Shown here: positions 28,069-61,651 of the stretch, one piece after another
Layout of the letters: the number at the start of each line of letters is the position of its first letter
How positions within the stretch are numbered: the first letter of the stretch is position 1
Assembly: GCA_040753215.1 (NCBI GenBank)
Contig: JBFMEZ010000029.1
Location: 29,394 to 93,393, forward strand
DNA from: Candidatus Micrarchaeota archaeon
GTDB lineage: Archaea; Micrarchaeota; Micrarchaeia; Anstonellales; Bilamarchaeaceae
Length of the DNA stretch: 64,000 nucleotides
Reading direction: 5' to 3'
Translations under genes and position numbers: made by a program
The notes under the pieces: model-generated
Seen by the model: only the letters and a program-made list of their open reading frames with translations
Database searches by the model: none
What the model was told of the DNA's origin: nothing

Positions 28069-29497
28069 ATACATGGGTGCCATAATAGATTTTATACACA
28101 AACTCTCGGGCTACCTGCCCGAAATAAGGGCCCCCACAAAGCTCCCCAGCATAAAGGAGCGCTTCCTCTGGACCGGAATCGCCCTCCTCCTCTTCTTCGT
28201 AATGTACAATGTTACCGTTTTCGGCGCATCCCACAGCGCGGGCGCCTTCGACTTCCTCCAGATGATTACCGCTTCCAAGATCGGCTCCCTGCTCACGACC
28301 TCCATCGGCCCCATAGTGCTCGCATCCATCTTCCTCCAGCTCTTCTCCGGCGCGGGCCTCATAGACCTCGACCCGAAGAACCCCGAGCAGAGGCAGAAGT
28401 TCCAGGAAGTGCAGAAGGTCCTCGCCCTCATAATCGCCCTTGTGGAGGCCTCCATATTCGTTTTCACCGGCCGCATCCCCCTTGTTCAGAATTCGCCTTT
28501 CGACCCCACCCTGCTCGCCGCCCTCGTCATATTCCAGGTTTCCCTCGGCTCCGCCATAGTCCTCTACCTTGACGAGATCGTCACAAAATACGGAATCGGC
28601 TCCGGCATCTCCCTATTCATCGCCGCAGGGGTCTCCTTCTCCATCATCGGCGGCGCCATCTCCCTTTTCGTGGGGGAAGGCGGCGTCGCCTCCGTGGTCG
28701 CGGGAGGCGGCGCAGAGGCGATCCCCAACGCCCTGCTCGTGCTCCTTCCCCTTCTCGTCACGCTCGCCGTTTTCGCGGCGGTCTGCTACGGCGAGGGCGT
28801 AAAGGTGGAAATCCCCCTCGCCTACCAGCAGGCCCGCGGAGTAGCCCCGAAGCTCCCCCTCAACCTCTTCTACCTCTCAAACATCCCGGTCATCTTCGCC
28901 TCCGCCCTGCTCCTGAACCTGCAGCTCTTCTCGGCGGGCCTGGAGGGAAAGAGCTTCATGCTCGGCGATTTCGACCTCGTGCCCGCAATCGGCTACGTGG
29001 ATTCCACGGGCCAGCTCCGCGACGGCCTCCTCTATTTCTTCACCCCGGTCTTCGGCGGCAACACGCTCTCCCAGATAAATTTCCTGATGAACGGCGTGAC
29101 CCCGCTCTTCGGCATCCCGGAATGGCTGCATGCCATAATCTACGTTATTTTCCTTGCCCTCGTCTCCGTCCTTTTCGGGATGTTCTGGGCCGAGACCGCG
29201 AACATGGACACCAAGGGCATGACAAACCAGCTCATGCAGTCCGGCATGCAGGTCCCGGGATGGAGGCGCGACCCGAGGATGATGGAGAAGGTGCTTGAAA
29301 AATACATCCCGCCCCTCATAATACTCGGCTCCTTCCTGGTCGGCCTCCTCGCAGGCCTTGCAGACCTCACCGGAGCCCTCGGCACTGGCACGGGGATACT
29401 CCTTACCGTGGGCATCTTCTACCGCACCTACCTCCAGATGAAGAGGCAGAGGATGCTCGAGGCGATGCCGATATTCGAAACCATCGCAGGTGAATGA
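28061..29497 (+). CDS. secY: preprotein translocase SecY
   Basis: 478 aa, 10 TM helices. Confidence 0.9.
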   Translation: MSEYMGAIIDFIHKLSGYLPEIRAPTKLPSIKERFLWTGIALLLFFVMYNVTVFGASHSAGAFDFLQMITASKIGSLLTTSIGPIVLASIFLQLFSGAGLIDLDPKNPEQRQKFQEVQKVLALIIALVEASIFVFTGRIPLVQNSPFDPTLLAALVIFQVSLGSAIVLYLDEIVTKYGIGSGISLFIAAGVSFSIIGGAISLFVGEGGVASVVAGGGAEAIPNALLVLLPLLVTLAVFAAVCYGEGVKVEIPLAYQQARGVAPKLPLNLFYLSNIPVIFASALLLNLQLFSAGLEGKSFMLGDFDLVPAIGYVDSTGQLRDGLLYFFTPVFGGNTLSQINFLMNGVTPLFGIPEWLHAIIYVIFLALVSVLFGMFWAETANMDTKGMTNQLMQSGMQVPGWRRDPRMMEKVLEKYIPPLIILGSFLVGLLAGLADLTGALGTGTGILLTVGIFYRTYLQMKRQRMLEAMPIFETIAGE

Positions 29498-30132: not shown

Positions 30133-30942
30133 ATGATAACCACCGGAAACTTCTTCTGGATAGTCACCCTCCTCGGCATAGTTTACTCGCTCTCAATCCG
30201 CTTCATCCAGATGAGATTCACGGACCAGGAGAGGATGAAATCCCTCCAGAAGCAGATGAACGACCTTAACAAGGAATACTTCTCCGCAATGAAATCCGGC
30301 AACAAGAAGCGCATGGATTCCATCCAGGAGGAGCAGAACAAGCTGATGCCCCAGTTCAGCGGGATGATGATGGGCCAGCTCAAGCTCATGGCTGCGATAA
30401 TATCCATATTCCTCGCCTTCATGGCCGTGGTGAACGCGCTCGACCCGTTCCTCCAGGACGACAAGGTCTTCGAGCTATTCCCGTCCGGCACCCAGCAAAC
30501 AGCGTCCTCCCGGTTCTGCGGTTCCTTCCCAGTCTCCTGCTCTTCCTCCGGCCCTTGGCTCGTGGAGGTCACCGCCTATTCCGGGGGTTCAGAAAAAGGG
30601 GCCAACAGCACTTACATCTATTGCGGCAGCGAAGGCGGAATCCGCCCCTCGCCCGTAACCAGGGGCACCCCCTTCCCAATAACAACCGATAAAAAAGTTT
30701 ATGCGCAGAATGATACTGCCACGGTGTGCATTTCCGCACCCGTAGGCACAGACCGCGCGGAGGGAAAAACCAACTCGGGCACGTGGTTCATGGTTCCGCT
30801 CCCATTCGCCATACCCGTGCTTAACGTGGACGTGATAAACGGGGCGAACATCTGGTTCATCCTCGTTTCCATAATATCCGGCCTGGTTTTCTCCTTCGCA
30901 TGGGGAAAAATAAAGAAGAAAGACGAAAAGGTGAAATCATGA
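30133..30942 (+). CDS. DUF106/EMC3-Oxa1-like membrane insertase homolog with ~100-aa Cys/Ser/Thr/Gly-rich extracytoplasmic insertion
   Basis: Conserved post-adk position; TM1 + coiled region + TM2/3 typical of DUF106; extra segment FELFPSGTQQ..TNSGTWFMVP. Confidence 0.6.
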   Translation: MITTGNFFWIVTLLGIVYSLSIRFIQMRFTDQERMKSLQKQMNDLNKEYFSAMKSGNKKRMDSIQEEQNKLMPQFSGMMMGQLKLMAAIISIFLAFMAVVNALDPFLQDDKVFELFPSGTQQTASSRFCGSFPVSCSSSGPWLVEVTAYSGGSEKGANSTYIYCGSEGGIRPSPVTRGTPFPITTDKKVYAQNDTATVCISAPVGTDRAEGKTNSGTWFMVPLPFAIPVLNVDVINGANIWFILVSIISGLVFSFAWGKIKKKDEKVKS

Positions 30943-31250
30943 CGAAAAGGAAAGACCGCTCAACAGCAATAAGAAAAATCAAAAGGCGCGTGCCTTCCGG
31001 CGAAAGCAGGGAATATTTCAGGCGCAGGCAAAAGAAGCCGAAGGCCTCGTGCGCCCTCTGCCGCTCCGCGCTACGTGGAATAGGCTCCGGGGCGAAGACC
31101 GAGAGGAGGCCCAACCGCAAATTCGCCGGCAACCTGTGCCACCGCTGCTCCGCCCGCATACTGGTGGAGGCGCAGCGCGTCCGCGAGAAAACGAAATCCC
31201 TGGACGATGTTGAGCTTCTCTACAGGAAATATGTGCAGGGCCTGATATGA
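30939..31250 (+). CDS. rpl34e: ribosomal protein eL34
   Basis: MTKRKDRSTAIRKIKRRVPSG.. zinc-ribbon CxxC..CxxC; ATGA overlap with upstream gene. Confidence 0.85.
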   Translation: MTKRKDRSTAIRKIKRRVPSGESREYFRRRQKKPKASCALCRSALRGIGSGAKTERRPNRKFAGNLCHRCSARILVEAQRVREKTKSLDDVELLYRKYVQGLI

Positions 31251-31294
31251 GTTCCCGGTTTCCCGTTTCCGGGAGCCGGTTGCGGGTGAATGCA

Positions 31295-31469
31295 GATGAT
31301 AATAACAGTATGGGGATGGACCGGTGCAGGGAAGAATACCCTCGGCGAGCTTCTCGCAAAGCGCCTCGGCTACCGCACCACCAAAAACGCGGAGGGGGAG
31401 ACCCCCTCCCCATTTTTAGGTGTCATTCTGACCCTCCCCCCGGTTCTTTCGAATGAGGTGAATGCATGA
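31295..31469 (+). repeat. 5'-end-associated hairpin element, copy C, preceded by ~88-nt decoy of cmk 5' end; 57-codon read-through ORF ending ATGA-overlapped with true cmk start
   Basis: 69 nt identical to cmk 31478-31546 plus 19 diverged nt; core AAAAACGCGGAGGGGGAGACCCCCTCCCCATTTTT with compensatory stem changes relative to copies A/B. Confidence 0.65.
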
Positions 31470-31984
31470 TTATCACGGTCTGGGGATGGACCGGTGCAGG
31501 GAAGAATACCCTCGGCGAGCTTCTCGCAAAGCGCCTCGGCTACCGCACCGTTTCTCCTACGTTTAAGGACCTCGCGGCAAAGGAGGGAATCTCCCTTCTT
31601 GAATTCCAGAAGAAGGCAGAGAAGGACCCTGACATAGACAGGAAGTTCGACGAGCTCCTCAAGGAAGAAGCCGGGAAGGGCAACTGCATCGTTACCACCT
31701 GGCTCGGCCCCTGGATGGTCCCCGCGGATTTCCGCATCCTGGTGTTCGCTCCGGAGAAGGTGCGCATCGAGCGCATCGCGAAGAGGGAATCCGTCTCCCA
31801 GAAAGAAGCGGCAAAATACGTGCGCGAGAAGGATTCCGGCAACATAAAGAGGTACAAGAACGTATATGGAATCGACATAACGGATACAAGCTCCTTCGAC
31901 CTCGCCCTGAGCGCGGAAACCTACCGCCCGGAGCAGATGGTCGAGATTGCCCTGTTGGCAATAGAAAAGAAAATGAAGAAATGA
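31466..31984 (+). CDS. cmk: cytidylate kinase (archaeal type)
   Basis: 172 aa, WGWTGAGKNT P-loop. Confidence 0.85.
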   Translation: MIITVWGWTGAGKNTLGELLAKRLGYRTVSPTFKDLAAKEGISLLEFQKKAEKDPDIDRKFDELLKEEAGKGNCIVTTWLGPWMVPADFRILVFAPEKVRIERIAKRESVSQKEAAKYVREKDSGNIKRYKNVYGIDITDTSSFDLALSAETYRPEQMVEIALLAIEKKMKK

Positions 31985-31993
31985 GGTGTTAAT

Positions 31994-32158
31994 ATGGCAG
32001 CAATTGAAGTTGGAAAAGTTTGCTTAATGAAGTTCGGCCGCCGCTCCGGTGAGGAAGTAACCATCACCAAAATTCTGGATGAAAATTTCGTGATGGTTAA
32101 GGACGCAAAAGGAAAGGAGAAGCGCGCGAACATAAAGCATCTCGAGCCGGTCGCTTAG
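31994..32158 (+). CDS. rpl14e: ribosomal protein eL14 (KOW)
   Basis: 54 aa MAAIEVGKVCLMKFGRRSGEEVTITKILDENFVMVKDAKGKEKRANIKHLEPVA; below ORF cutoff; conserved position after cmk. Confidence 0.75.
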   Translation: MAAIEVGKVCLMKFGRRSGEEVTITKILDENFVMVKDAKGKEKRANIKHLEPVA

Positions 32159-32177
32159 GCTACCGTATTTTTGCGTG

Positions 32178-32657
32178 TTATTCAGCCATATCCGCCAGCG
32201 CCCTCCGGATCTTTTCCCTGAATTTCGGCAGCCACCTTTCCAATTCCACTAATTCAGGCAATGCCCTTCTTCTGATTAGTTCGTCTATCGCCCCTTCACT
32301 CAAATCATCAAAGCACACCCCGCACTTGGCCAGTTTCACCAAGCCTCCATTTCCGCCTGATCCCAGTCGTTCTGCCGCAAGCTCTGCCATCTCCCTGTCC
32401 TGCCGCGTCGGCTGAAACTGCCCGCTTTTCAAATAAATTATATGCACCGAGTCGTCCTCGCTAAGGAATGCGAGCAGCTTCTTTATCCTGTTTATTCCCA
32501 TCTCCTTACAATGCAACAAAGCCGGCAGCGCCTCTTCGAAAACAGTGCTTCTCGCCCTGCATTCAACCATAGGCTCTTTTGGGAACTCTTTCTTGCAGCT
32601 GCCCATCGCTATTGTAGCGCACACAACTGCTGTTACAACTGCTTTTCCAGTCTTCAT
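32178..32657 (-). CDS. hypothetical exported/lipoprotein-like protein
   Basis: 159 aa; N-terminal signal-like MKTGKAVVTAVVCATIAMGSC. Confidence 0.4.
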   Translation of the reverse strand: MKTGKAVVTAVVCATIAMGSCKKEFPKEPMVECRARSTVFEEALPALLHCKEMGINRIKKLLAFLSEDDSVHIIYLKSGQFQPTRQDREMAELAAERLGSGGNGGLVKLAKCGVCFDDLSEGAIDELIRRRALPELVELERWLPKFREKIRRALADMAE

Positions 32658-32667
32658 ATTTCATCAC

Positions 32668-33270
32668 CTATATTTTCAATTCCAGCCTGCCCAGCTCCCG
32701 CCTTTCCGCCGTCTTATAGTTGCCAGTAGCAGGGTCCTTCGTCTGGTCATAGACCATAGTAAACACTATCGAGTCATCTCCGACTCTATATTCTGAAAAT
32801 ACGCGCCCGCATTGCCCATCATGGGGATAGGGCTGATGGACTTCGCCAAGGTATCTAGGCTTCCCATCCCCCTCTTTCATTCCATAGAAGTAGATATCTG
32901 CTCCTGATGGAATAGGGGACCATCTGTACCGATAAGCATAATTCCACAATTCGATTATACCTATTTTTTCCTGGCCGTCTCCACGCTCGAATACTTCCAC
33001 ACCAACCTTGTAATCCAGATGGCGACCTTGCGATGCCAATAGCTTTCCGAAGCATTCCAATTTTTCTCTCAGGTCGTCCGTCGTGAGTGCTCTTATAGCT
33101 AGCTTTGCCGTACTCAGTTCTCTTTCTAGCTCATATATGCGCTCATGGCCAGCGCGGTCAAGTGCGAAATCAAGCGCGAACCCCTCCAACAGCCTGAACG
33201 CGTTGCTTCGCGGCCTTTGGCTGCCTGCGCTTTCGGTTTTTGCCCGTTCGGTCGTCCCCCCATTTTTCAT
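32668..33270 (-). CDS. hypothetical protein
   Basis: 200 aa, probably co-transcribed with 32178-32657. Confidence 0.4.
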   Translation of the reverse strand: MKNGGTTERAKTESAGSQRPRSNAFRLLEGFALDFALDRAGHERIYELERELSTAKLAIRALTTDDLREKLECFGKLLASQGRHLDYKVGVEVFERGDGQEKIGIIELWNYAYRYRWSPIPSGADIYFYGMKEGDGKPRYLGEVHQPYPHDGQCGRVFSEYRVGDDSIVFTMVYDQTKDPATGNYKTAERRELGRLELKI

Positions 33271-33334
33271 TTGCCATCACTGATTACAACACGCAAGCGC
33301 AATATTTATATTCTCGTGGTTACATAATTACCAC

Positions 33335-34063
33335 ATGATAAACAAAGAAGCCCTTGAAGCCCTGGGCCTCACAGAAAACGATTCACGAGTCTGCATCACT
33401 CTGCTCACCCACGGCCCCCAGAGGGTTGCGGATTTGGAGAGGATCGTAGGGATACACAGGAGGAACCTCTACGACTCGCTCAGCAGGCTGGAAAAAATGG
33501 AAGTTGTCAATTCTTTCATCCGTAATGGAGTTCGCTATTTTCAGATTGCAAGCATGGATTTGCTGAGCGACATGCTCAGGAAGAAAGAAGAGGAGATACA
33601 TGGGTTTCTTTCTGGAATAAAGAAGATTGAGAGGGAGTACAGGATCCCCGAGGTCCACATTCTCTCCGGCGAGAAGGGAGTAAAGATGCTGCTCGACGAC
33701 GAACTTAGGACCGGAAAACCAATATACGGAATAGCTTCTTCAGGATTCGAGAAAAGGGTATGGGATTATCTGGCCAGGACGCCACATAGGATTCTTGCTG
33801 CTGACCTCCCAGTGAAACTGGTCTACACCAAAAGCGATGTTGAAAACAGGAAAAAAGCGCTAAAATACGATTTCGTGGAAGTGCGCGTCGTTCCCGACGA
33901 ATACAAATCCTCGGTTGCGCTGGAGCTCTACGGAGACACTTCCTGCATAATACTAGAAAATATAATCATAAGAATAAGGGACAAGGAGGTAAACCATAAG
34001 TTTATGATGTTCTTCAACTCCCTCTGGAAGATGAGAAAAAGAACCCAAGCTCCTCTTGATTAG
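33335..34063 (+). CDS. TrmB-family transcriptional regulator (paralog 1 of 3)
   Basis: N-terminal TrmB wHTH (..LGLTENDSRVCITLLTHGPQRVADL..) plus C-terminal domain; GTGGTTACATAATTACCAC palindrome just upstream. Confidence 0.65.
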   Translation: MINKEALEALGLTENDSRVCITLLTHGPQRVADLERIVGIHRRNLYDSLSRLEKMEVVNSFIRNGVRYFQIASMDLLSDMLRKKEEEIHGFLSGIKKIEREYRIPEVHILSGEKGVKMLLDDELRTGKPIYGIASSGFEKRVWDYLARTPHRILAADLPVKLVYTKSDVENRKKALKYDFVEVRVVPDEYKSSVALELYGDTSCIILENIIIRIRDKEVNHKFMMFFNSLWKMRKRTQAPLD

Positions 34064-34111
34064 TATCAAAAAACATAACTTTATAAGCGAATTGTTATAT
34101 AATTTGATACT

Positions 34112-35050
34112 ATGAACCTAACCAGAAGGGAAGCAGAGATATTGGATTATTTAATGGGCAAAAAAGCAAATTTCAGGGACGCAGCACGAGCTTTGGGAAT
34201 AAAAAAACCCAATTTCTCAAATTATATCAAAAAACTCGGGCGGTACCGCATGGTCAGCGTCTTCAGGAAAGGCCGGCTTAAAGAATTATCCTTGGAATAT
34301 GGCCTTAGGTCCGGTTTTTTTGGGGCAAAGAAAAAACTGCCCCATATCAGATTAAGCCACCTCCTGGCAGGCATAACGCCATTTCTCCTCAGTTTCATCA
34401 AAACCAGACGAAGGTTTAGAATAAGCGATTTGGATATTCCGCTCATATCTGCCAAGAGGCAATTAAAACAGCTAAGAAATCTAGGCATAGTTTTTATGCC
34501 ATTTAGAGGAATATATGAATTAAGGGAAGAAGCCCTGCCTGCCGCGGAGTTTTGCAGGAACATCATTATGCAGATGCACGCCGCCGAAGCCGAACAAGAA
34601 TTAAAAACCATCAACCAGGCATTTTTTTCATTTGACAGCGCCGAAGAATTAGAAGTTGTTTTTGTTACAGATCAGGATACCCGCCCAAAGCACTATTGGC
34701 CTACAGCCTACAGCGTGTTTCATAATTATGGAATCCAGCTTATTTTAGCCGGAAAATACTATCACGCTAATATAAAGCCAAAGCTGGAAGACGTTATTAT
34801 CCATACATTAGCCGTAAGCAGAGATGCGAGGAGCATAATGTACGTCGCTGCCCTTATGCTTAAAAATAAATTTGATTATAATAAATTGCTAAGAAAGAAA
34901 CAGCGTTTTGACCTGCCTGAAGAATTTATAAAAAACCTGATTGGATTTGTTGAATCAAAAGGAAAAAAAACCTTCGAAGGCTTTCCCTCATGGGAAGAAG
35001 TAGGGGATGTCGCATATGGAAAAACAATTCAACGCGCAGTACATAGATGA
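34112..35050 (+). CDS. wHTH-domain protein, AbiEi-like antitoxin candidate
   Basis: 312 aa, AT-rich (foreign-looking) gene; N-terminal wHTH; overlaps downstream nucleotidyltransferase gene. Confidence 0.4.
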   Translation: MNLTRREAEILDYLMGKKANFRDAARALGIKKPNFSNYIKKLGRYRMVSVFRKGRLKELSLEYGLRSGFFGAKKKLPHIRLSHLLAGITPFLLSFIKTRRRFRISDLDIPLISAKRQLKQLRNLGIVFMPFRGIYELREEALPAAEFCRNIIMQMHAAEAEQELKTINQAFFSFDSAEELEVVFVTDQDTRPKHYWPTAYSVFHNYGIQLILAGKYYHANIKPKLEDVIIHTLAVSRDARSIMYVAALMLKNKFDYNKLLRKKQRFDLPEEFIKNLIGFVESKGKKTFEGFPSWEEVGDVAYGKTIQRAVHR

Positions 35051-35642
35051 AGAATTTGGAAAGATAGGCGCACGGATCAGGAAACCCGTCAGCATCTATC
35101 TTATCGGCGGATGTGCGATGTCTTTTAGAGGCCTAAAAGAAACAACCCGTGACGTCGATATCGTCTTCAAGGATAAGAGCGATTGTAAGATATTTTGCGA
35201 AGCTTTATTTGGAGCCCAGTATTACGAGCCCATAACCATCAAAACAGAGCACGAGCATTTGCATGCGATAAAGATGTATGAAAATAAAGATGGTTTTCAT
35301 TTGGATTTATTCATAAAACAGGTAATCCGAAAGCTTATGCTGTCCGAATCCATGGTCGCAAGAGCCAAATTCTATAAGAAATATGGCGGCTTGTCGGTTT
35401 ATTTGCTTTCAAAAGAGGATATTTTCCTTTTCAAGGGCTTGGCAAGTGAAGGCAGGGAAAGAGACCTGCCAGATATGCAGGTTTTATACCCAAACCTTGA
35501 CTGGAAAATGATACTGGAGGAATTGAAATCCCAGCATTTATCAGGGGATTTAAGAGAACTTTTCGCCAGGCGCCTTGCGGCATTCAACCAAAAATACAGG
35601 CTGGATGTTCCAATATTAAAAGATTTGAAAGGGAAACTATGA
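35016..35642 (+). CDS. minimal nucleotidyltransferase-fold protein, AbiEii-like toxin candidate (paralog of 55614-56282)
   Basis: GGCAMSFRGLKETTRDVDIVF matches G[GS]..D[IV]D nucleotidyltransferase motif; ORF 35007-35642. Confidence 0.45.
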   Translation: MEKQFNAQYIDEEFGKIGARIRKPVSIYLIGGCAMSFRGLKETTRDVDIVFKDKSDCKIFCEALFGAQYYEPITIKTEHEHLHAIKMYENKDGFHLDLFIKQVIRKLMLSESMVARAKFYKKYGGLSVYLLSKEDIFLFKGLASEGRERDLPDMQVLYPNLDWKMILEELKSQHLSGDLRELFARRLAAFNQKYRLDVPILKDLKGKL

Positions 35643-36970
35643 ACATAGAATCACATGCAAAACCTAGATACTTATACCACGGAAGCCCCCATGAAATCGA
35701 AGGCGATAAACTTTTTCCCGGGCAGGCCCGCTCCCTAGGCAACAATCCTGAAAACCTGCATTTCGGCGTTTATGCCACAGACATAAAAGATGCCGCCATC
35801 ACAATGGCGATAATCCGCTGCAGGGGCGTAGGCTCTTCCTGGTGCTCTTTTGGCGGCAAGCCCCCCTACGGCATAATTATAGAAGGTTGGCCCCAACAGG
35901 AATATTTCTACCTCTATACGCTCCCCTCAGCTACATTCGAAAAAACACACGAAAGAGGGGGGCAATGGGTCTCCCACGAACTAGTTAAACCCCTGAAGGT
36001 AGAGAAGCTCAGCGTTTCAGATTATCTTCATTTAGTCAGAAAAGCCACAGAAGAAGAGAAAAAAGACTGGTTCGAAAGATTCGGAAAGAAAATAAAAGAA
36101 GAGAGATCCAAACTCATAGAATCCCTCCTCAACAATTCCGTAGTCATAATTGACAAGCCCTGCGGCCCCACCTCCCACGAAGTCTCATCTTGGGTTCGGA
36201 AGCTCGCAGGCCTTAAGCGCACCGGCCACGCAGGCACCCTGGACCCCAATGTTTCCGGCGTCCTCCCAGTTGCCCTCGGCCGCGCCACCAAATTGCTCCA
36301 ATACATCGCCGGAAAGCGCAAATCCTACGTATGCATCGTCCGCTTCAAGAACGACCTCACAGATGCCCAGCTTGAATCCCTCTTTTCCAAATTCCGCGGC
36401 GAAATCACCCAAACCCCGCCCAAAATCTCCGCAGTGCGCAAAATCCCCCGCAAGCGCTTCGTCTACGAGCTCCGCGTCCTTGAAAGGGAAGGCAAAAAAG
36501 TCCTCTTCTACGCAGATGTGGACGCAGGCACCTATATCCGCACCCTCTGCTCTGACATGGGCAAGTTCACAGGAGGTTCCAGGATGGAGGAGCTGCGCCG
36601 CGTCGCTGTCGGCAACATTTCCGAAAAGGATGCAGTCACCCTCCAGGATTTCTCCGATGCCCTATACGCATACAGGGAGAGGAAAAACCCCTCCCTACTC
36701 CTTAGGATTCTCCACCCTCCCGAAGAGCTCATAGATGCGAAAAAGGTGTCCATCCGCCCCTCTGCAGCCGAAGCCCTCATGCACGGCGCCCAGCTCACCG
36801 CACCCGGGGTCGAATCCCTGGACGATTCCATCAGGAAGGAAGAAATAGTCAAAATCTACTGCGGAGACCGCTTCATCGGCATGGGAAAGACCATCTTTCC
36901 CGCCCGCAAGATAAAGGAAAGGACGCATGGATACGTAGTGAATATAGAGAGGATACACGCTACAGAATAA
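35639..36970 (+). CDS. cbf5: tRNA/rRNA pseudouridine synthase Cbf5 (H/ACA RNP) with ~100-130-aa non-canonical N-terminal extension
   Basis: VIIDKPCGPTSHEV..GHAGTLDPNVSGVLPVALGRATK TruB core and C-terminal PUA; no internal Met between extension and core. Confidence 0.8.
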   Translation: MNIESHAKPRYLYHGSPHEIEGDKLFPGQARSLGNNPENLHFGVYATDIKDAAITMAIIRCRGVGSSWCSFGGKPPYGIIIEGWPQQEYFYLYTLPSATFEKTHERGGQWVSHELVKPLKVEKLSVSDYLHLVRKATEEEKKDWFERFGKKIKEERSKLIESLLNNSVVIIDKPCGPTSHEVSSWVRKLAGLKRTGHAGTLDPNVSGVLPVALGRATKLLQYIAGKRKSYVCIVRFKNDLTDAQLESLFSKFRGEITQTPPKISAVRKIPRKRFVYELRVLEREGKKVLFYADVDAGTYIRTLCSDMGKFTGGSRMEELRRVAVGNISEKDAVTLQDFSDALYAYRERKNPSLLLRILHPPEELIDAKKVSIRPSAAEALMHGAQLTAPGVESLDDSIRKEEIVKIYCGDRFIGMGKTIFPARKIKERTHGYVVNIERIHATE

Positions 36971-36976
36971 GAAGAA

Positions 36977-37059
36977 CGCGAAGGGGGAGATTTGAACTCC
37001 CAATCCCTTGCGGGACATGCTTTCCAGGCATGCGCACTACCGGGTTATGCGACCTCCGC
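36977..37059 (-). tRNA. tRNA-Ser (anticodon GGA), type II with long variable arm, no encoded CCA
   Basis: Manual fold: acceptor GCGGAGG/CCTTCGC (one G-U), D-stem GCAT/GTGC, anticodon stem CATGC/GCATG loop CTGGAAA, variable arm TCCCGCAAGGGATT, T-arm GGGAG-TTCAAAT-CTCCC, discriminator G. Confidence 0.8.
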
Positions 37060-47264: not shown

Positions 47265-47326
47265 AACCCGCCGTACAGCGGCTCTACTAATATCTACCAA
47301 TTGCAGAGTATGTATAATTATGAATC
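47265..47326 (+). promoter_or_regulatory. duplicated promoter/5'-leader block, copy 2, driving aminotransferase-P1-P2 operon
   Basis: See 46324-46384. Confidence 0.55.
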
Positions 47327-48576
47327 ATAGTGCAAGATACATAAAGAGATCAAGCGCGGATATAATGGAAGTAGTTCGCGGATTTGATCGTTACCACAGA
47401 ATGTTCAGGGAGTATACACAAAGAGGTGGAAAGGTTGGAAGTTCTTTAGACCGGGGGGCATTCACCCGCCCTCACGAGGTATTGCCTGAAGAAGCACGTT
47501 TTCTTCTTGGTGAGGGGCGGAGGAGCGGATCTTTTGCATATGGTCCGGAAGCAGGAGATGACAAATTAAGAGAAAAAATAGCGGAGGTTGAAAATAGGCG
47601 CCATGGAACTTTCTATTCGCCAGATAACGTTGCTATGCTTCCAGGTGCTTGGTCAGGAATAGTATTTGCGATAGAAGAGATCCTGAATCTAAAAAATGGA
47701 AAGATGAATAAAGAAAAAATAGCAATTATAGGGCCAACTTTATACCTGATGTTTCAGCGCATTATCAGAGACTATGGCATCGAAGTAAATGCGTATGATT
47801 TTGTAGTCCCTGGGACAGAGCGCGTCCCAACAAGTATGGATGATATGGAGTGTGTCTTTGCCGATAGACCGAAAATGATTGTAATCACAAACCCAAACAA
47901 TCCGGATGGCAAATACTTTCCACCTGCTTTACTAAGAGAGGTTATTGAAAGGGCAGGCCAAGAAGGAATTTACATCATTATGGATGAGATTCAAAACTGT
48001 TTCCCCCGCCGTGCTCGTATAGGGTACAGTTCATGGATTCAAGCGCCAAACGTAGTCCGTATGGATTCTGCTTCAAAAGCGTATGCGCTTGCAGAATACA
48101 AGACCGGATGGATGATCGCAGAACCGAGGCTGCTTGGCGACAGAATGGATGGAATTATAAGTCGTATGAGCGGGATTATGGGTAATGCTCCAAGAGCCGC
48201 AAATACGGCGTTACTTTACTTGCTTAATAGGGAATTGGAAAGAATTGCGACAGGAGTAGACTATTTATCATCTGTTCATGCAAAATTAACCAGAAAAGAA
48301 GAATTTGTCCTGGCTCATTTGGCAGCCATGGACAACATCATAGAAATAATTTTGCCACACGCCTGCATCAACCTTACGGTGCAGGTTGCATTTGATGGGA
48401 CCGATATGGAGCTAGCGAAAATATTGATGGAGAACGGAACACTTCTGATGCCTGCTAGCGGATATGGCCATAGCATAAGTCCGCCCACCCTGCGCATCAC
48501 TTTTGCAGAAAGGCAAGAAAAAGTGGAGCATTCCATGGCTGTTTTAGAGCGTGTACTTGGAGGTTATGTTTCATGA
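47320..48576 (+). CDS. PLP-dependent aminotransferase (class I/II fold)
   Basis: 418 aa; AT-rich; ..DSASKAYALAEYKTGWM.. Lys region; ATGA overlap with next gene. Confidence 0.6.
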   Translation: MNHSARYIKRSSADIMEVVRGFDRYHRMFREYTQRGGKVGSSLDRGAFTRPHEVLPEEARFLLGEGRRSGSFAYGPEAGDDKLREKIAEVENRRHGTFYSPDNVAMLPGAWSGIVFAIEEILNLKNGKMNKEKIAIIGPTLYLMFQRIIRDYGIEVNAYDFVVPGTERVPTSMDDMECVFADRPKMIVITNPNNPDGKYFPPALLREVIERAGQEGIYIIMDEIQNCFPRRARIGYSSWIQAPNVVRMDSASKAYALAEYKTGWMIAEPRLLGDRMDGIISRMSGIMGNAPRAANTALLYLLNRELERIATGVDYLSSVHAKLTRKEEFVLAHLAAMDNIIEIILPHACINLTVQVAFDGTDMELAKILMENGTLLMPASGYGHSISPPTLRITFAERQEKVEHSMAVLERVLGGYVS

Positions 48577-58537: not shown

Positions 58538-59308
58538 ATGAAAATCAGCGATTTGTTCAGGGAGATAGGCTTCTCGGAGGGTGAAGGCAAGGTATACCAG
58601 GCCATCCTCACGCACCTTTCCCCGACCCTCCAGTCCATCCACGAAGAGACCGGGATAGAGAGAAGGAACGTCTACGACATCGTAAACAAGCTCATCTCAA
58701 AGGGGCTGGTCACCTACCAGATGGAGAACAGGAAGAAGACCTACCACACGACCCACCCAAGCAAAATACTGAACTACCTAGAAGAGCGGGAAGGTGAGAT
58801 AACGAATGCAAAAAACATGGTGAATGCAGAGCTCGGCCAGCTTGTGAATATGTACGAGGGCAGCAAGGAGGAGTTCCACACGGAGATTTACAGGGGGAAC
58901 GAGGGCATGAAGGCTGTTTTTGAGGATATACTGAATTATAAGCACTACTACCTTATAGGAGGGAATTTTGGCGTTATGAGATTCCTTGGCGAAGCATTCT
59001 TGAACAGATGGCATGCAAAAAGGGAGAAAAAGAAAATCTGGATTCACGACATAATAAGGTACCAGAGCTTTATTGGCGAAGGGGCGATTCCTGAATTTAC
59101 CAAGAACCTAAAATACTGGGAATACAAGATGCTCCCCAAGGAATTCTGGTCCCCCCACGTGATTTTCATATACGGGGACAAGGTTGTGAATGTATTTTGG
59201 GGCGAACAAAGCTTCGCATTCCTCATCCAGAACGAGGGCATCGCGAAGAGCTATATGGACTATTTCAACTATCTGTGGAAAACCCTGCCTAGCCCCAAAA
59301 GGCGATGA
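58538..59308 (+). CDS. TrmB-family transcriptional regulator (paralog 2)
   Basis: 256 aa; N-terminal TrmB wHTH; stop 2 nt before P3 start. Confidence 0.65.
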   Translation: MKISDLFREIGFSEGEGKVYQAILTHLSPTLQSIHEETGIERRNVYDIVNKLISKGLVTYQMENRKKTYHTTHPSKILNYLEEREGEITNAKNMVNAELGQLVNMYEGSKEEFHTEIYRGNEGMKAVFEDILNYKHYYLIGGNFGVMRFLGEAFLNRWHAKREKKKIWIHDIIRYQSFIGEGAIPEFTKNLKYWEYKMLPKEFWSPHVIFIYGDKVVNVFWGEQSFAFLIQNEGIAKSYMDYFNYLWKTLPSPKRR

Positions 59309-60903: not shown

Positions 60904-61651
60904 AGAAATAGAAGAAATCCTGAAGAAAGTGGGCCTAACCACGCAGGAATCCCGCGTATACCTTGCGCTCCTTGAGCTCCAAGAGGCGCAGACCGGCCGC
61001 CTCTGCTCCTTCACCGGCATAGCCAGCTCCAACATCTACAACATCCTCCGCTCCCTCATGCAAAAGGGCCTCGCAAGCTACCGTGTGCAGAACAATACCC
61101 GCGTCTTTCTCCCCGCCTCACCAGATGCGCTGAACGAGCTTTTCCTTGAAAAGCAGAAGAAACTTGATGAGGAACGCCGCGAGGTCACAGCGCTCGTCTC
61201 CAGCCTGAAGAAGAGAAAGGTTGAGACCGAACCCTACTCCAATTACAAATACTACGAAGGAATTTCTGGCGTAAAATCCATGTGGCATGAAATCAACGGC
61301 TTCATGTCCCCGGACTCAACCGCCCTTGTATACACCTCCCGCCGCGCAGCCTATGAAAAATTGATAAGCTTCTACGACGTACACCATAAAATGCGCCGTG
61401 AAAAGGGGATAAAGGAGCTTATGGTTTTCCCGGACGAGGACAGGGAACTCGGCCACAAGCGACGCAACAGATATACGGAAGTCCGCTTCAGCAGCATAAA
61501 AAGCGACGCAGAATGGGGCATTATAAGGGACCGCCTCTACATCCAGTACATCACCGGAAAAGTCCCCCGCGCATTCCTCATAAAAGACGAGACCTTCGCC
61601 AACACCTTCCGCGAGGTCTTCTCAAAGCTCTGGGAGCGTGCAAAGCCATGA
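60899..61651 (+). CDS. TrmB-family transcriptional regulator (paralog 3), GTG start
   Basis: 250 aa; ATGA overlap with P4. Confidence 0.65.
   Translation: MKEIEEILKKVGLTTQESRVYLALLELQEAQTGRLCSFTGIASSNIYNILRSLMQKGLASYRVQNNTRVFLPASPDALNELFLEKQKKLDEERREVTALVSSLKKRKVETEPYSNYKYYEGISGVKSMWHEINGFMSPDSTALVYTSRRAAYEKLISFYDVHHKMRREKGIKELMVFPDEDRELGHKRRNRYTEVRFSSIKSDAEWGIIRDRLYIQYITGKVPRAFLIKDETFANTFREVFSKLWERAKP

Follow-up and report, generated by a model that had tools for sequence, protein, structure and literature searches.

A candidate AbiE/MenAT-like cassette and a predicted Cbf5 fusion in DNA inserted between rpl14e and cbf5 of a Micrarchaeota archaeon

Introduction

In a contig of a Candidatus Micrarchaeota archaeon (JBFMEZ010000029.1, assembly GCA_040753215.1), the highly conserved archaeal linkage of cmk, rpl14e and cbf5 is broken by an AT-rich stretch of some four kilobases, and the pseudouridine synthase gene cbf5 begins with a long non-canonical N-terminus. 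This raises the question of where the intervening DNA came from, whether any of its genes belong to a recognised toxin–antitoxin (TA) or abortive-infection system, and what its arrival has meant for cbf5. We have analysed 64,000 nucleotides around the locus (contig positions 29,394 to 93,393, forward strand; "the window", in whose numbering all positions are given). An initial annotation had described an island at 33280–36100 with a TrmB-like regulator and an AbiE-like pair of genes, one for a 312-residue winged helix-turn-helix (wHTH) protein and the other for an overlapping minimal nucleotidyltransferase (NTase). The explanation that we favour, and regard as fairly probable, is a mosaic insertion carrying an AbiE/MenAT-like TA cassette together with a fusion of an ADP-ribosyltransferase (ART)-like domain to Cbf5. 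On the sequence comparisons made here, two things appear to be new: an archaeal NTase cassette, so far uncharacterised, that has a new family of partner proteins and a conserved predicted operator, and the forced ART-like::Cbf5 fusion.

A block inserted between rpl14e and cbf5

Comparison with related contigs shows, as judged by alignment, that a block has been inserted into the conserved EMC3–rpl34e–cmk–rpl14e–cbf5 operon of one Micrarchaeota lineage. Ten relatives were used: five Micrarchaeota genome loci (L001–L005), in which the Cbf5 core is 83–88% identical to that of the window, and five contigs (L092–L096) with a Cbf5 from the 90% cluster to which that of the window belongs. In nine of the ten the two genes are 4–19 nt apart or overlap, a typical joint reading TGA TAAA ATG GAA ATA GAA TCT, and these nine, which span ~77–83% nucleotide identity, also share the TGATAAAATG motif. 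The junctions were mapped by aligning the window with L001–L005, L092 and L096. Homology stops at 32158 with the TAG stop codon of rpl14e (the alignment with L002 ends directly after it) and returns at 36116 at ATAGAATC, so the inserted block spans 32159–36115, a length of 3957 bp. On the left the exact joint is TAG/GCTACC, and that on the right is AAACTC/ATAGAATC. In the relatives, none of the genes of the block is found within 10 kb of cbf5.

The split in the cmk–rpl14e–cbf5 linkage reported in the initial annotation is thus borne out against all ten contigs, nine of them with the tight joint and one, L003, with a different ORF (open reading frame) in it. The start of the island had been placed too far to the right, at 33280, and moves 1.1 kb to 32159, which brings in two further ORFs on the minus strand (32178–32657 and 32668–33270). 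The TrmB-like, wHTH and NTase genes are present as described. In L003, another Micrarchaeota metagenome-assembled genome (MAG), the ORF at the joint encodes an unrelated protein of 153 residues (9478–9939); the spot has therefore been hit more than once, and the spacer between rpl14e and cbf5 seems to be a recurrent insertion site.

Base composition also supports the island reading. The GC content is 0.37–0.44 across 33800–35600 compared with 0.55–0.65 in the flanking ribosomal genes (400-nt windows), in agreement with the drop first noticed between 33300 and 35650. The wHTH and NTase genes together (34112–35642) have a GC content of 0.409, against 0.546 ± 0.043 in equal-sized windows outside the block (z = −3.2; minimum 0.453). 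GC content at third codon positions is likewise outlying, at 0.41 in the wHTH gene and 0.48 in the NTase gene against 0.675 ± 0.091 for other ORFs of at least 150 residues. At 0.450 the whole block lies below every equal-sized window outside it, making it the most AT-rich piece of its size in the window. By part, the value is 0.50 in the two minus-strand ORFs (orf159 and orf200), 0.47 in the TrmB-like gene, 0.41 in the pair and 0.47 in the ART-like part. In 6 of 13 loci compared, the GC content of the pair is lower than that of the DNA on either side of it, and in low-GC hosts it matches its flanks at 0.33–0.40; because the 0.41 of the window pair equals that of pair and flanks in low-GC relatives, it was plausibly donated by a low-GC Micrarchaeon.

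A conserved two-gene cassette

The wHTH and NTase genes, with the short region upstream of them, behave in these comparisons as an autonomous and strictly conserved archaeal two-gene cassette (34061–35642). The first protein has wHTH matches at residues ~3–62 and ~83–142, followed at residues 194–298 by the HVO_2833_C domain (PF24271), which is matched by 31 of 32 partner proteins with a best E-value of 3.8e-44; the wHTH domains in the partner family are of ArsR/MarR type. The NTase carries the motif IGGCAMSFRGLKETTRDVDIV (IGG...DVD) and is identical to P0047 (NCBI locus tag AB1657_05865). Although it scores below the DUF6036 (PF19502) threshold, at 16.4 bits against 23.6, 22 of 45 relatives match that family at E < 0.01, and on this sequence evidence we place the window NTase in a divergent branch of DUF6036.

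The NTase has homologs in ~95 clusters, at 56–80% identity, the named ones mostly from Micrarchaeota, with more distant members (37–41% identity) in Thermococcus and Archaeoglobus. A metagenome scan gave 80 loci, of which ~57 have enough upstream DNA for the partner to be judged. In all of these a same-strand ORF of 302–334 residues ends within a few nucleotides of the NTase start, and a homolog of the partner was found by tblastn in all 14 close loci; the partner is always immediately 5' of the NTase and on the same strand. Chromosomal contexts are varied. The pair also occurs at 118 places on 97 haloarchaeal plasmids, where NCBI names the NTase homologs "DUF6036 family", and on plasmids pJ7-1 and pNATPE02 it adjoins orc1/cdc6. 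On both of these (Natrinema pJ7-1, L097, 3248–8668; pNATPE02, L098, 59–5939) the surrounding block is conserved and consists of orc1/cdc6, a hypothetical gene, an HTH gene, the DUF6036 NTase, a second hypothetical gene and an ArdC-like gene. The same 36.8% identity to the query recurs across many genera, suggesting that near-identical copies have spread between genera.

The other genes of the block do not travel with the pair. Neither the TrmB-like gene, orf159, orf200 nor the ART-like gene lies near it in the 81 other pair loci examined, and cbf5 is never linked to it there. A three-gene module, whether made up of the pair and the ART-like gene or of the pair and TrmB, was therefore rejected, and the TrmB-like regulator is not a component of the conserved cassette.

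Relationship to AbiE, MenAT and HEPN/MNT systems

The best-matching NTases of known structure are toxins. AbiEii proteins are defined by motifs I and II, hG[G/S]x9-15DhD with a conserved Arg in the spacer, motif III, KLxAaxxR with hydrophobic residues on both sides of the K, and motif IV, +DxxD (Dy et al., PMC3985639). In the window NTase, I30-G31-G32 is followed after 13 residues by D46-V-D48, with R38 invariant in 45 sequences; motif III appears as FLFK140-G-L-A143-S-E-G-R147, with K140 and R147 invariant; and motif IV as R149-D150-L-P-D153, with D150 and D153 invariant. The full set of invariant residues in the family is G31, G32, R38, T44, D46, D48, D97, K140, R147, D150 and D153. A profile of the family finds MenT1 (8an4, annotated "AbiEii/AbiGii toxin family") at E = 3.7e-5, with an alignment that runs through the catalytic motifs including the K/D residues. 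The AlphaFold2 model of the NTase (predicted local distance difference test score, pLDDT, 90.6) gives MenT1, JHP933 and 4ok0 at Foldseek ranks 1–7 (E 8e-6 to 5e-5; template modelling score, TM, 0.4–0.57), with the antibiotic nucleotidyltransferases LnuA and ANT(2'') and with TM1012 lower in the list. From these matches we take the NTase to be a distant relative within the AbiEii/MenT (DUF1814) toxin superfamily and propose that it is a toxin.

The AbiE label itself holds in part. Architecture and superfamily agree: as in AbiE of Streptococcus agalactiae and Lactococcus (PMC3985639), the operon is bicistronic, with the regulator first and an overlapping NTase second (~57 loci), the regulator has N-terminal wHTH and C-terminal domains (here in the order wHTH, wHTH, C-terminal domain), there are inverted repeats in the promoter, motifs I–IV are present, and the systems occur on mobile elements and in archaea. 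Membership does not follow. The window NTase has a G-to-D spacing of 13 residues as opposed to 15 in AbiE, is only ~208 residues long and files under DUF6036; its partner, with two wHTH domains and HVO_2833_C (PF24271), is not an AbiEi and is unrelated in sequence to the C-terminal domain of AbiEi/COG5340. The search for DUF1814/AbiEii with hidden Markov models (HMMs) that the initial annotation had proposed gave no match for the window NTase in Pfam or PADLOC. Among its 45 relatives none matches Pfam AbiEii, and three PADLOC AbiEii models are matched weakly by nine, six and one of them (best E = 8.9e-6). PADLOC AbiEi is matched by 6 of 32 partner members (best E = 0.0031), and in the nine members examined individually the PADLOC matches are all confined to the wHTH domains and include no AbiEi model. 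With neither database calling AbiEii or AbiEi for the window proteins, HMM-based membership of AbiE was rejected, and the pair is therefore filed as an AbiE/MenAT-like variant (HVO_2833 plus DUF6036), not as AbiE. Outside the wHTH domains HVO_2833_C has no relative in PDB or PADLOC, and its assignment as a HEPN domain, as the AbiEi C-terminal domain or as a defence component was rejected.

MenAT1 of Mycobacterium tuberculosis (Rv0078B/Rv0078A; PMC10435456, PMC11375011) is closer in some respects. MenT proteins are tRNA nucleotidyltransferase toxins, and in MenAT1 the antitoxin induces auto-phosphorylation of the toxin (PMC10435456, PMC11375011). Of the PDB entries MenT1 matches best, in profile and in fold alike (TM ~0.5); it too is short (~196 residues) with an x13 spacing, its catalytic Lys and Asp align with those of the window NTase, and its auto-phosphorylation site T39, a Thr two residues before DxD, aligns with T44. 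However, identity to the window NTase is only 17–18%, and the antitoxin MenA1 is small and lacks wHTH domains. HEPN/MNT modules, which abound in archaea, likewise consist of two genes, one of them for a Pol-beta-type nucleotidyltransferase, but there the antitoxin role falls to the NTase, and its partner is a HEPN RNase. The window partner is a double-wHTH protein whose conserved residues run H231...R240, the reverse of the order in the HEPN Rx4-6H motif, and the window NTase carries AbiEii motifs III and IV.

A predicted operator over the promoter

The 52 nt upstream of the wHTH gene read TAGTATCAAAAAACATAAC TTTATA ... GTTATATAATTTGATAC TATG. They are 77–94% identical to the equivalent region of 11 related loci, compared with 56–63% for the first 300 coding nucleotides. 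A distant clade has the same layout with other half-sites, GTTCCATA ... TATGGAAC. Of 58 loci, 26 have an inverted repeat (at least 8 of 9 positions, 24–34-nt loop), which is found in 7% of shuffled sequences and in 3% of coding controls. By analogy with AbiEi, we propose that the inverted half-sites are a predicted operator for negative autoregulation. A scan with promoter and terminator models was not above shuffled expectation; these models are bacterial and inappropriate for archaea.

A probable ART-like domain and its predicted fusion to Cbf5

Sequence comparison indicates that the first 159 codons of cbf5 are a captured ORF that is normally free-standing. Residues 8–153 match 46 free-standing proteins of 130–161 residues at up to 58% identity, the named ones from Nanoarchaeota and Pacearchaeota (DPANN), and an exhaustive profile search gave 770 relatives, most of them ~140–170 residues long. 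The genes of the free-standing proteins lie in unrelated contexts, by a GNAT acetyltransferase, by a topoisomerase or overlapping a DNA ligase gene. The initial annotation had suspected such a capture and was right in that, although the captured part is 159 residues long (35639–36115) and not 100–130; its comparison of the Cbf5 N-terminus with orthologs, now made, shows homology starting only at 36116, directly after the place where the relatives have ATGGAA.

The captured domain is quite probably, on model and motif evidence, an ART-like, NAD-using fold. Its AlphaFold2 model has a pLDDT of 89.7, and the top four Foldseek matches in PDB are all ADP-ribosyltransferases (Arr twice, TreTu and TreX), though weak (E 0.035–0.37, TM 0.37–0.53); matches in BFVD are mostly unnamed, with PARP at rank 17 and PolyVal ART at rank 22. 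The family has an invariant H14 in its YHGS motif and, in VYAT, a Y45 with at least 90% conservation; Y93 is conserved too. H14 and Y45 correspond to the first two elements of H-Y-x ARTs, which carry HGS and Y-A-T-type motifs in strands 1 and 2, and DUF3990, matched by one of the relatives, is a family of the ART clan (PMC7955679). The domain resembles Arr and the minimal ARTs of the ADP-ribosyl clan (PMC7955679) in size (~140–150 residues) and in its "HGS" and "Y-A-T" motifs in strands 1 and 2. It differs in the weakness of the structural matches, in that E88, at the expected third catalytic position, is not conserved, and in scoring below the DUF6886 threshold (22.2–23.9 bits against 27), a family that 31 of 47 relatives match weakly. 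A literature search found no paper mentioning DUF6886. Some relatives (P0240, P0250, P0275, P0231 and P0283) are fused to NUDIX, NMNAT-like CTP_transf_like, Zeta/AAA_33 kinase or ParB_N domains, a hint of NAD or ADP-ribose chemistry. The start codon of the ART-like ORF overlaps the stop codon of the NTase gene (35639–35642, ATGA), as if the two were translationally coupled, and the genes are not adjacent in the other loci examined.

Residues 160–443 are those of a full equivalog of archaeal Cbf5, the pseudouridine synthase of H/ACA ribonucleoproteins, with TruB_N, the GTLDP motif and PUA. The NCBIfam models NF003280 and TIGR00425 are matched at 315.7 bits against 242 and 277.1 against 238, and they cover residues 155–440 only of the 443. 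Unlike other archaeal Cbf5 proteins, that of the window carries a foreign N-terminal domain of 159 residues, has lost its own start and is uncoupled from rpl14e. Where the relatives have ATGGAA/ATAGAATC, the window has AAACTC/ATAGAATC; the native ATG has been replaced, and among the contigs compared the start codon is missing only here. In-frame ATG, GTG or TTG codons occur in the 443-codon ORF only at residues 1, 56 and 219, and the last of these lies past the catalytic GTLDP motif. An internal start was therefore rejected, there being none between residues 56 and 219, and it follows that the sequence as it stands allows active Cbf5 to be produced only in fused form. NCBI annotates it as a protein of 443 residues, compared with 286–296, or 160 in what is probably a fragment, for the other members of its 90% cluster. 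Because a T-run and a convergent gene follow rpl14e, the arrangement suggests that cbf5 is now transcribed from promoters within the island.

Proposed explanation and alternatives

How might such a cassette work? In the mechanism that we envisage, the double-wHTH protein would bind the two inverted half-sites around the TATA box and repress its own operon, and its HVO_2833_C domain would neutralise the NTase. Once freed, the NTase would add nucleotides to an RNA target, for example tRNA 3' ends, on which MenT acts, and arrest growth. The cassette would then be an addiction or abortive-infection module, which would fit both its presence beside orc1/cdc6 on plasmids and its scattered chromosomal sites. 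Argued as it is from the AbiE and MenAT systems, we put this mechanism as a whole at an even chance or slightly better. At the locus itself, the island would supply both the promoter and the start codon of the essential Cbf5, a dependence that would lock the island in place.

Several observations weigh against the insertion of a TA cassette with a Cbf5 fusion. The hallmarks of a mobile element were sought in the ORF list and by repeat search, and rejected: the block has no terminal repeats, whether direct or inverted, no target-site duplication and no gene for an integrase or a transposase, and the tRNA-Ser gene lies off the junction. A viral origin was likewise rejected, with no relatives in PHROG families of known function, among 50,697 phage records or in IMG/VR. 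The uneven GC content inside the block argues that it was perhaps not acquired in a single event, and it is possible that more than one contributed. The window NTase matches no AbiEii HMM (Pfam PF08843 at E ≤ 0.1, PADLOC at E ≤ 1), and its partner has no detectable similarity to AbiEi beyond a generic wHTH, with no AbiEi among its Pfam matches. Toxicity, neutralisation and DNA binding of HVO_2833/DUF6036 members are argued by analogy, a literature search having found no paper that mentions either family. The 56–80% identity of the NTase across Micrarchaeota would also fit a conserved housekeeping role, and the fusion rests on one metagenome-assembled contig.

The most serious alternative, which we nevertheless consider unlikely, is that the pair is a non-toxic archaeal regulator and enzyme, the NTase modifying a small molecule or else a substrate in the cell or in plasmid replication, and that it reached this locus by ordinary gene shuffling. 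That identity range over ~95 Micrarchaeota clusters and the strict 1:1 occurrence of the partner would suit such a role, as would the position of the plasmid pair in the replication region beside orc1/cdc6, the presence of LnuA, ANT(2'') and TM1012 among the lower-ranked structural neighbours, and the lack of a PADLOC call for the window pair. Yet the best matches in both sequence and structure are AbiEii/MenT toxins, all four toxin motifs are present, and autoregulated TA operons typically have a palindromic operator across the promoter (PMC3985639), as predicted here. The variable chromosomal contexts, the multiple plasmid copies and the AT-richness in 6 of 13 loci are, moreover, features of mobile addiction modules.

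Doubt of another kind concerns the assembly. The fusion, or the whole insert, could be an artefact of the MAG, arising by chimeric assembly or from a 1-nt indel within the A-rich stretch at 36081–36110, in which case the ART-like gene would end just before a separately translated cbf5. Such an indel would split the two ORFs, since a TAG in the +1 frame (36117–36119) overlaps the ATA at 36116–36118. No other Cbf5 fusion was found among the 150 listed representatives of the 770 ART-like matches, and the evidence comes from a single contig of a metagenome assembly. We think an artefact decidedly less probable than a real fusion: both joints fall inside the ~20-nt rpl14e–cbf5 spacer with no repeat to cause a misjoin, and the frame matches that of the homologs through FGKKIKEE, four codons short of the joint. 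Even with the indel, cbf5 would have no canonical start (ATG, GTG or TTG), and the loss of the native one would remain. The idea that the AT-rich stretch is native and ancestral, lost in the relatives and low in GC through weak expression or codon bias, is most improbable. GC content does range from 0.47 to 0.62 across the window, with the ribosomal genes the GC-richest, and the TrmB-like gene has paralogs there. Against this, nine related contigs have the tight joint, which a single gain explains much more simply than a whole series of precise losses, only the window lacks the cbf5 start codon, and the GC content of the pair is below that of every equal-sized window outside the block.

The insertion of an AbiE/MenAT-like cassette with a Cbf5 fusion is thus the explanation that we prefer. 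Its widest form, advanced tentatively and at somewhat less than even chances, is that HVO_2833 double-wHTH proteins and DUF6036 NTases make up an unrecognised, largely archaeal branch of AbiE/MenAT TA systems with a new antitoxin-regulator, common in Micrarchaeota and on haloarchaeal plasmids and missed by defence-finder models, and that the insertion here also made a natural ART-like::Cbf5 chimera, through which a selfish cassette would control an essential enzyme of RNA modification. A true TA or abortive-infection module would mean an archaeal-specific branch with a new antitoxin architecture, tractable in Haloferax volcanii (HVO_2833 gives the partner family its name) and on haloarchaeal plasmids, and might explain part of the "missing" defence or addiction repertoire of DPANN archaea and of those plasmids. 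The locus would also be an example of entrenchment, in which a mobile cassette has split a highly conserved archaeal linkage and deprived an essential gene of its start codon, the gene then surviving only in in-frame fusion with a passenger ORF. For the DUF6886-like family, the ART-like fold and the NUDIX and NMNAT-like fusions of relatives would provide a first functional lead.

Other features of the locus

The positions of the features discussed here are collected in Table 1. The setting is a ribosomal super-operon, which continues downstream of cbf5 with tRNA-Ser, rps13 and rps4; the neighbouring proteins at the locus correspond to NCBI entries MEW5997080–85.

Table 1 Features of the rpl14e–cbf5 locus (window positions; TATA-like boxes, operator arms and captured gene are predictions)
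Feature	Positions	Strand	Basis and remarks
EMC3-like gene	30133..30942		
rpl34e	30900..31250		
cmk	31466..31984		
rpl14e, left flank, 54 aa (amino acids)	31994..32158	+	NCBIfam L14e E = 7.5e-17; tblastn match in L001–L005
Inserted block, 3957 bp, GC 0.450	32159..36115		From rpl14e stop codon to cbf5 codon 3; lineage-specific
orf159, hypothetical, convergent with rpl14e	32178..32657	-	NCBI MEW5997080.1; alone in its 90% cluster
orf200, ORFan	32668..33270	-	Itself the sole match among 5.8 billion proteins
TrmB-like wHTH regulator, 242 aa	33335..34063	+	Pfam TrmB 43.2 bits, cut-off 25.6, residues 7–61
Predicted promoter/operator, 52 nt	34061..34112	+	Arms TAGTATCAAAA and ATTTGATACTA flank TATA-like boxes; right arm ends at ATG
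HVO_2833-family protein, 312 aa: two tandem wHTH and HVO_2833_C	34112..35050	+	PF24271 34.7 bits, cut-off 34
DUF6036-like NTase, 208 aa from MEKQ	35016..35642	+	ORF opens at 35007; overlaps wHTH gene
Captured DUF6886-like gene = Cbf5 residues 1–159	35639..36115	+	ATG overlaps NTase stop codon (ATGA); no own stop
Cbf5 core: TruB_N, TruB_C_2, PUA	36116..36970	+	Without own start codon
tRNA-Ser(GGA), right neighbour of cbf5	36977..37059	-	ARAGORN; not at insertion joint
rps13, 241 aa	37421..38146		

Neither orf159 nor orf200 has a family in Pfam, NCBIfam, PADLOC or PHROG. In the TrmB-like protein only the N-terminal wHTH is matched, and full-length membership is not supported, with 13.7 bits for NCBIfam TrmB and 26.6 for TrmBL1 against cut-offs of 600 and 650. 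A TATA-like TTTATAT can be read ~30 nt upstream of its gene. The family is multi-copy in this genome, with paralogs of 23–29% identity in the window at 58565–59281 and 60920–61213. Elsewhere in the window the ORF at 47320–48576 (plus strand) is the only other long one as AT-rich as the cassette (GC 0.442, third codon positions 0.39) and may be another acquired gene.

The 54 residues encoded by rpl14e correspond to positions 1–53 of an 88-position model and fall below the NCBIfam cut-off; the protein is of equal length in all relatives. The tRNA-Ser(GGA) gene is 100% identical to that of L001 over 97 nt and is inverted in L092 (8907–9004) and L096 (1705–1802). About the first 29 codons of cmk are duplicated in tandem 170 nt upstream (31296–31382 compared with 31466–31552, with a perfect core of 66 nt), which yields a 59-residue pseudo-ORF (31290–31469) between rpl34e and cmk; this spacer is absent from the relatives. 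Finally, the protein encoded by rps13 is extended at its N-terminus by a Lys/Glu-rich stretch and has an Ala/Pro-rich tail at its C-terminus; L002 has a similar tail.

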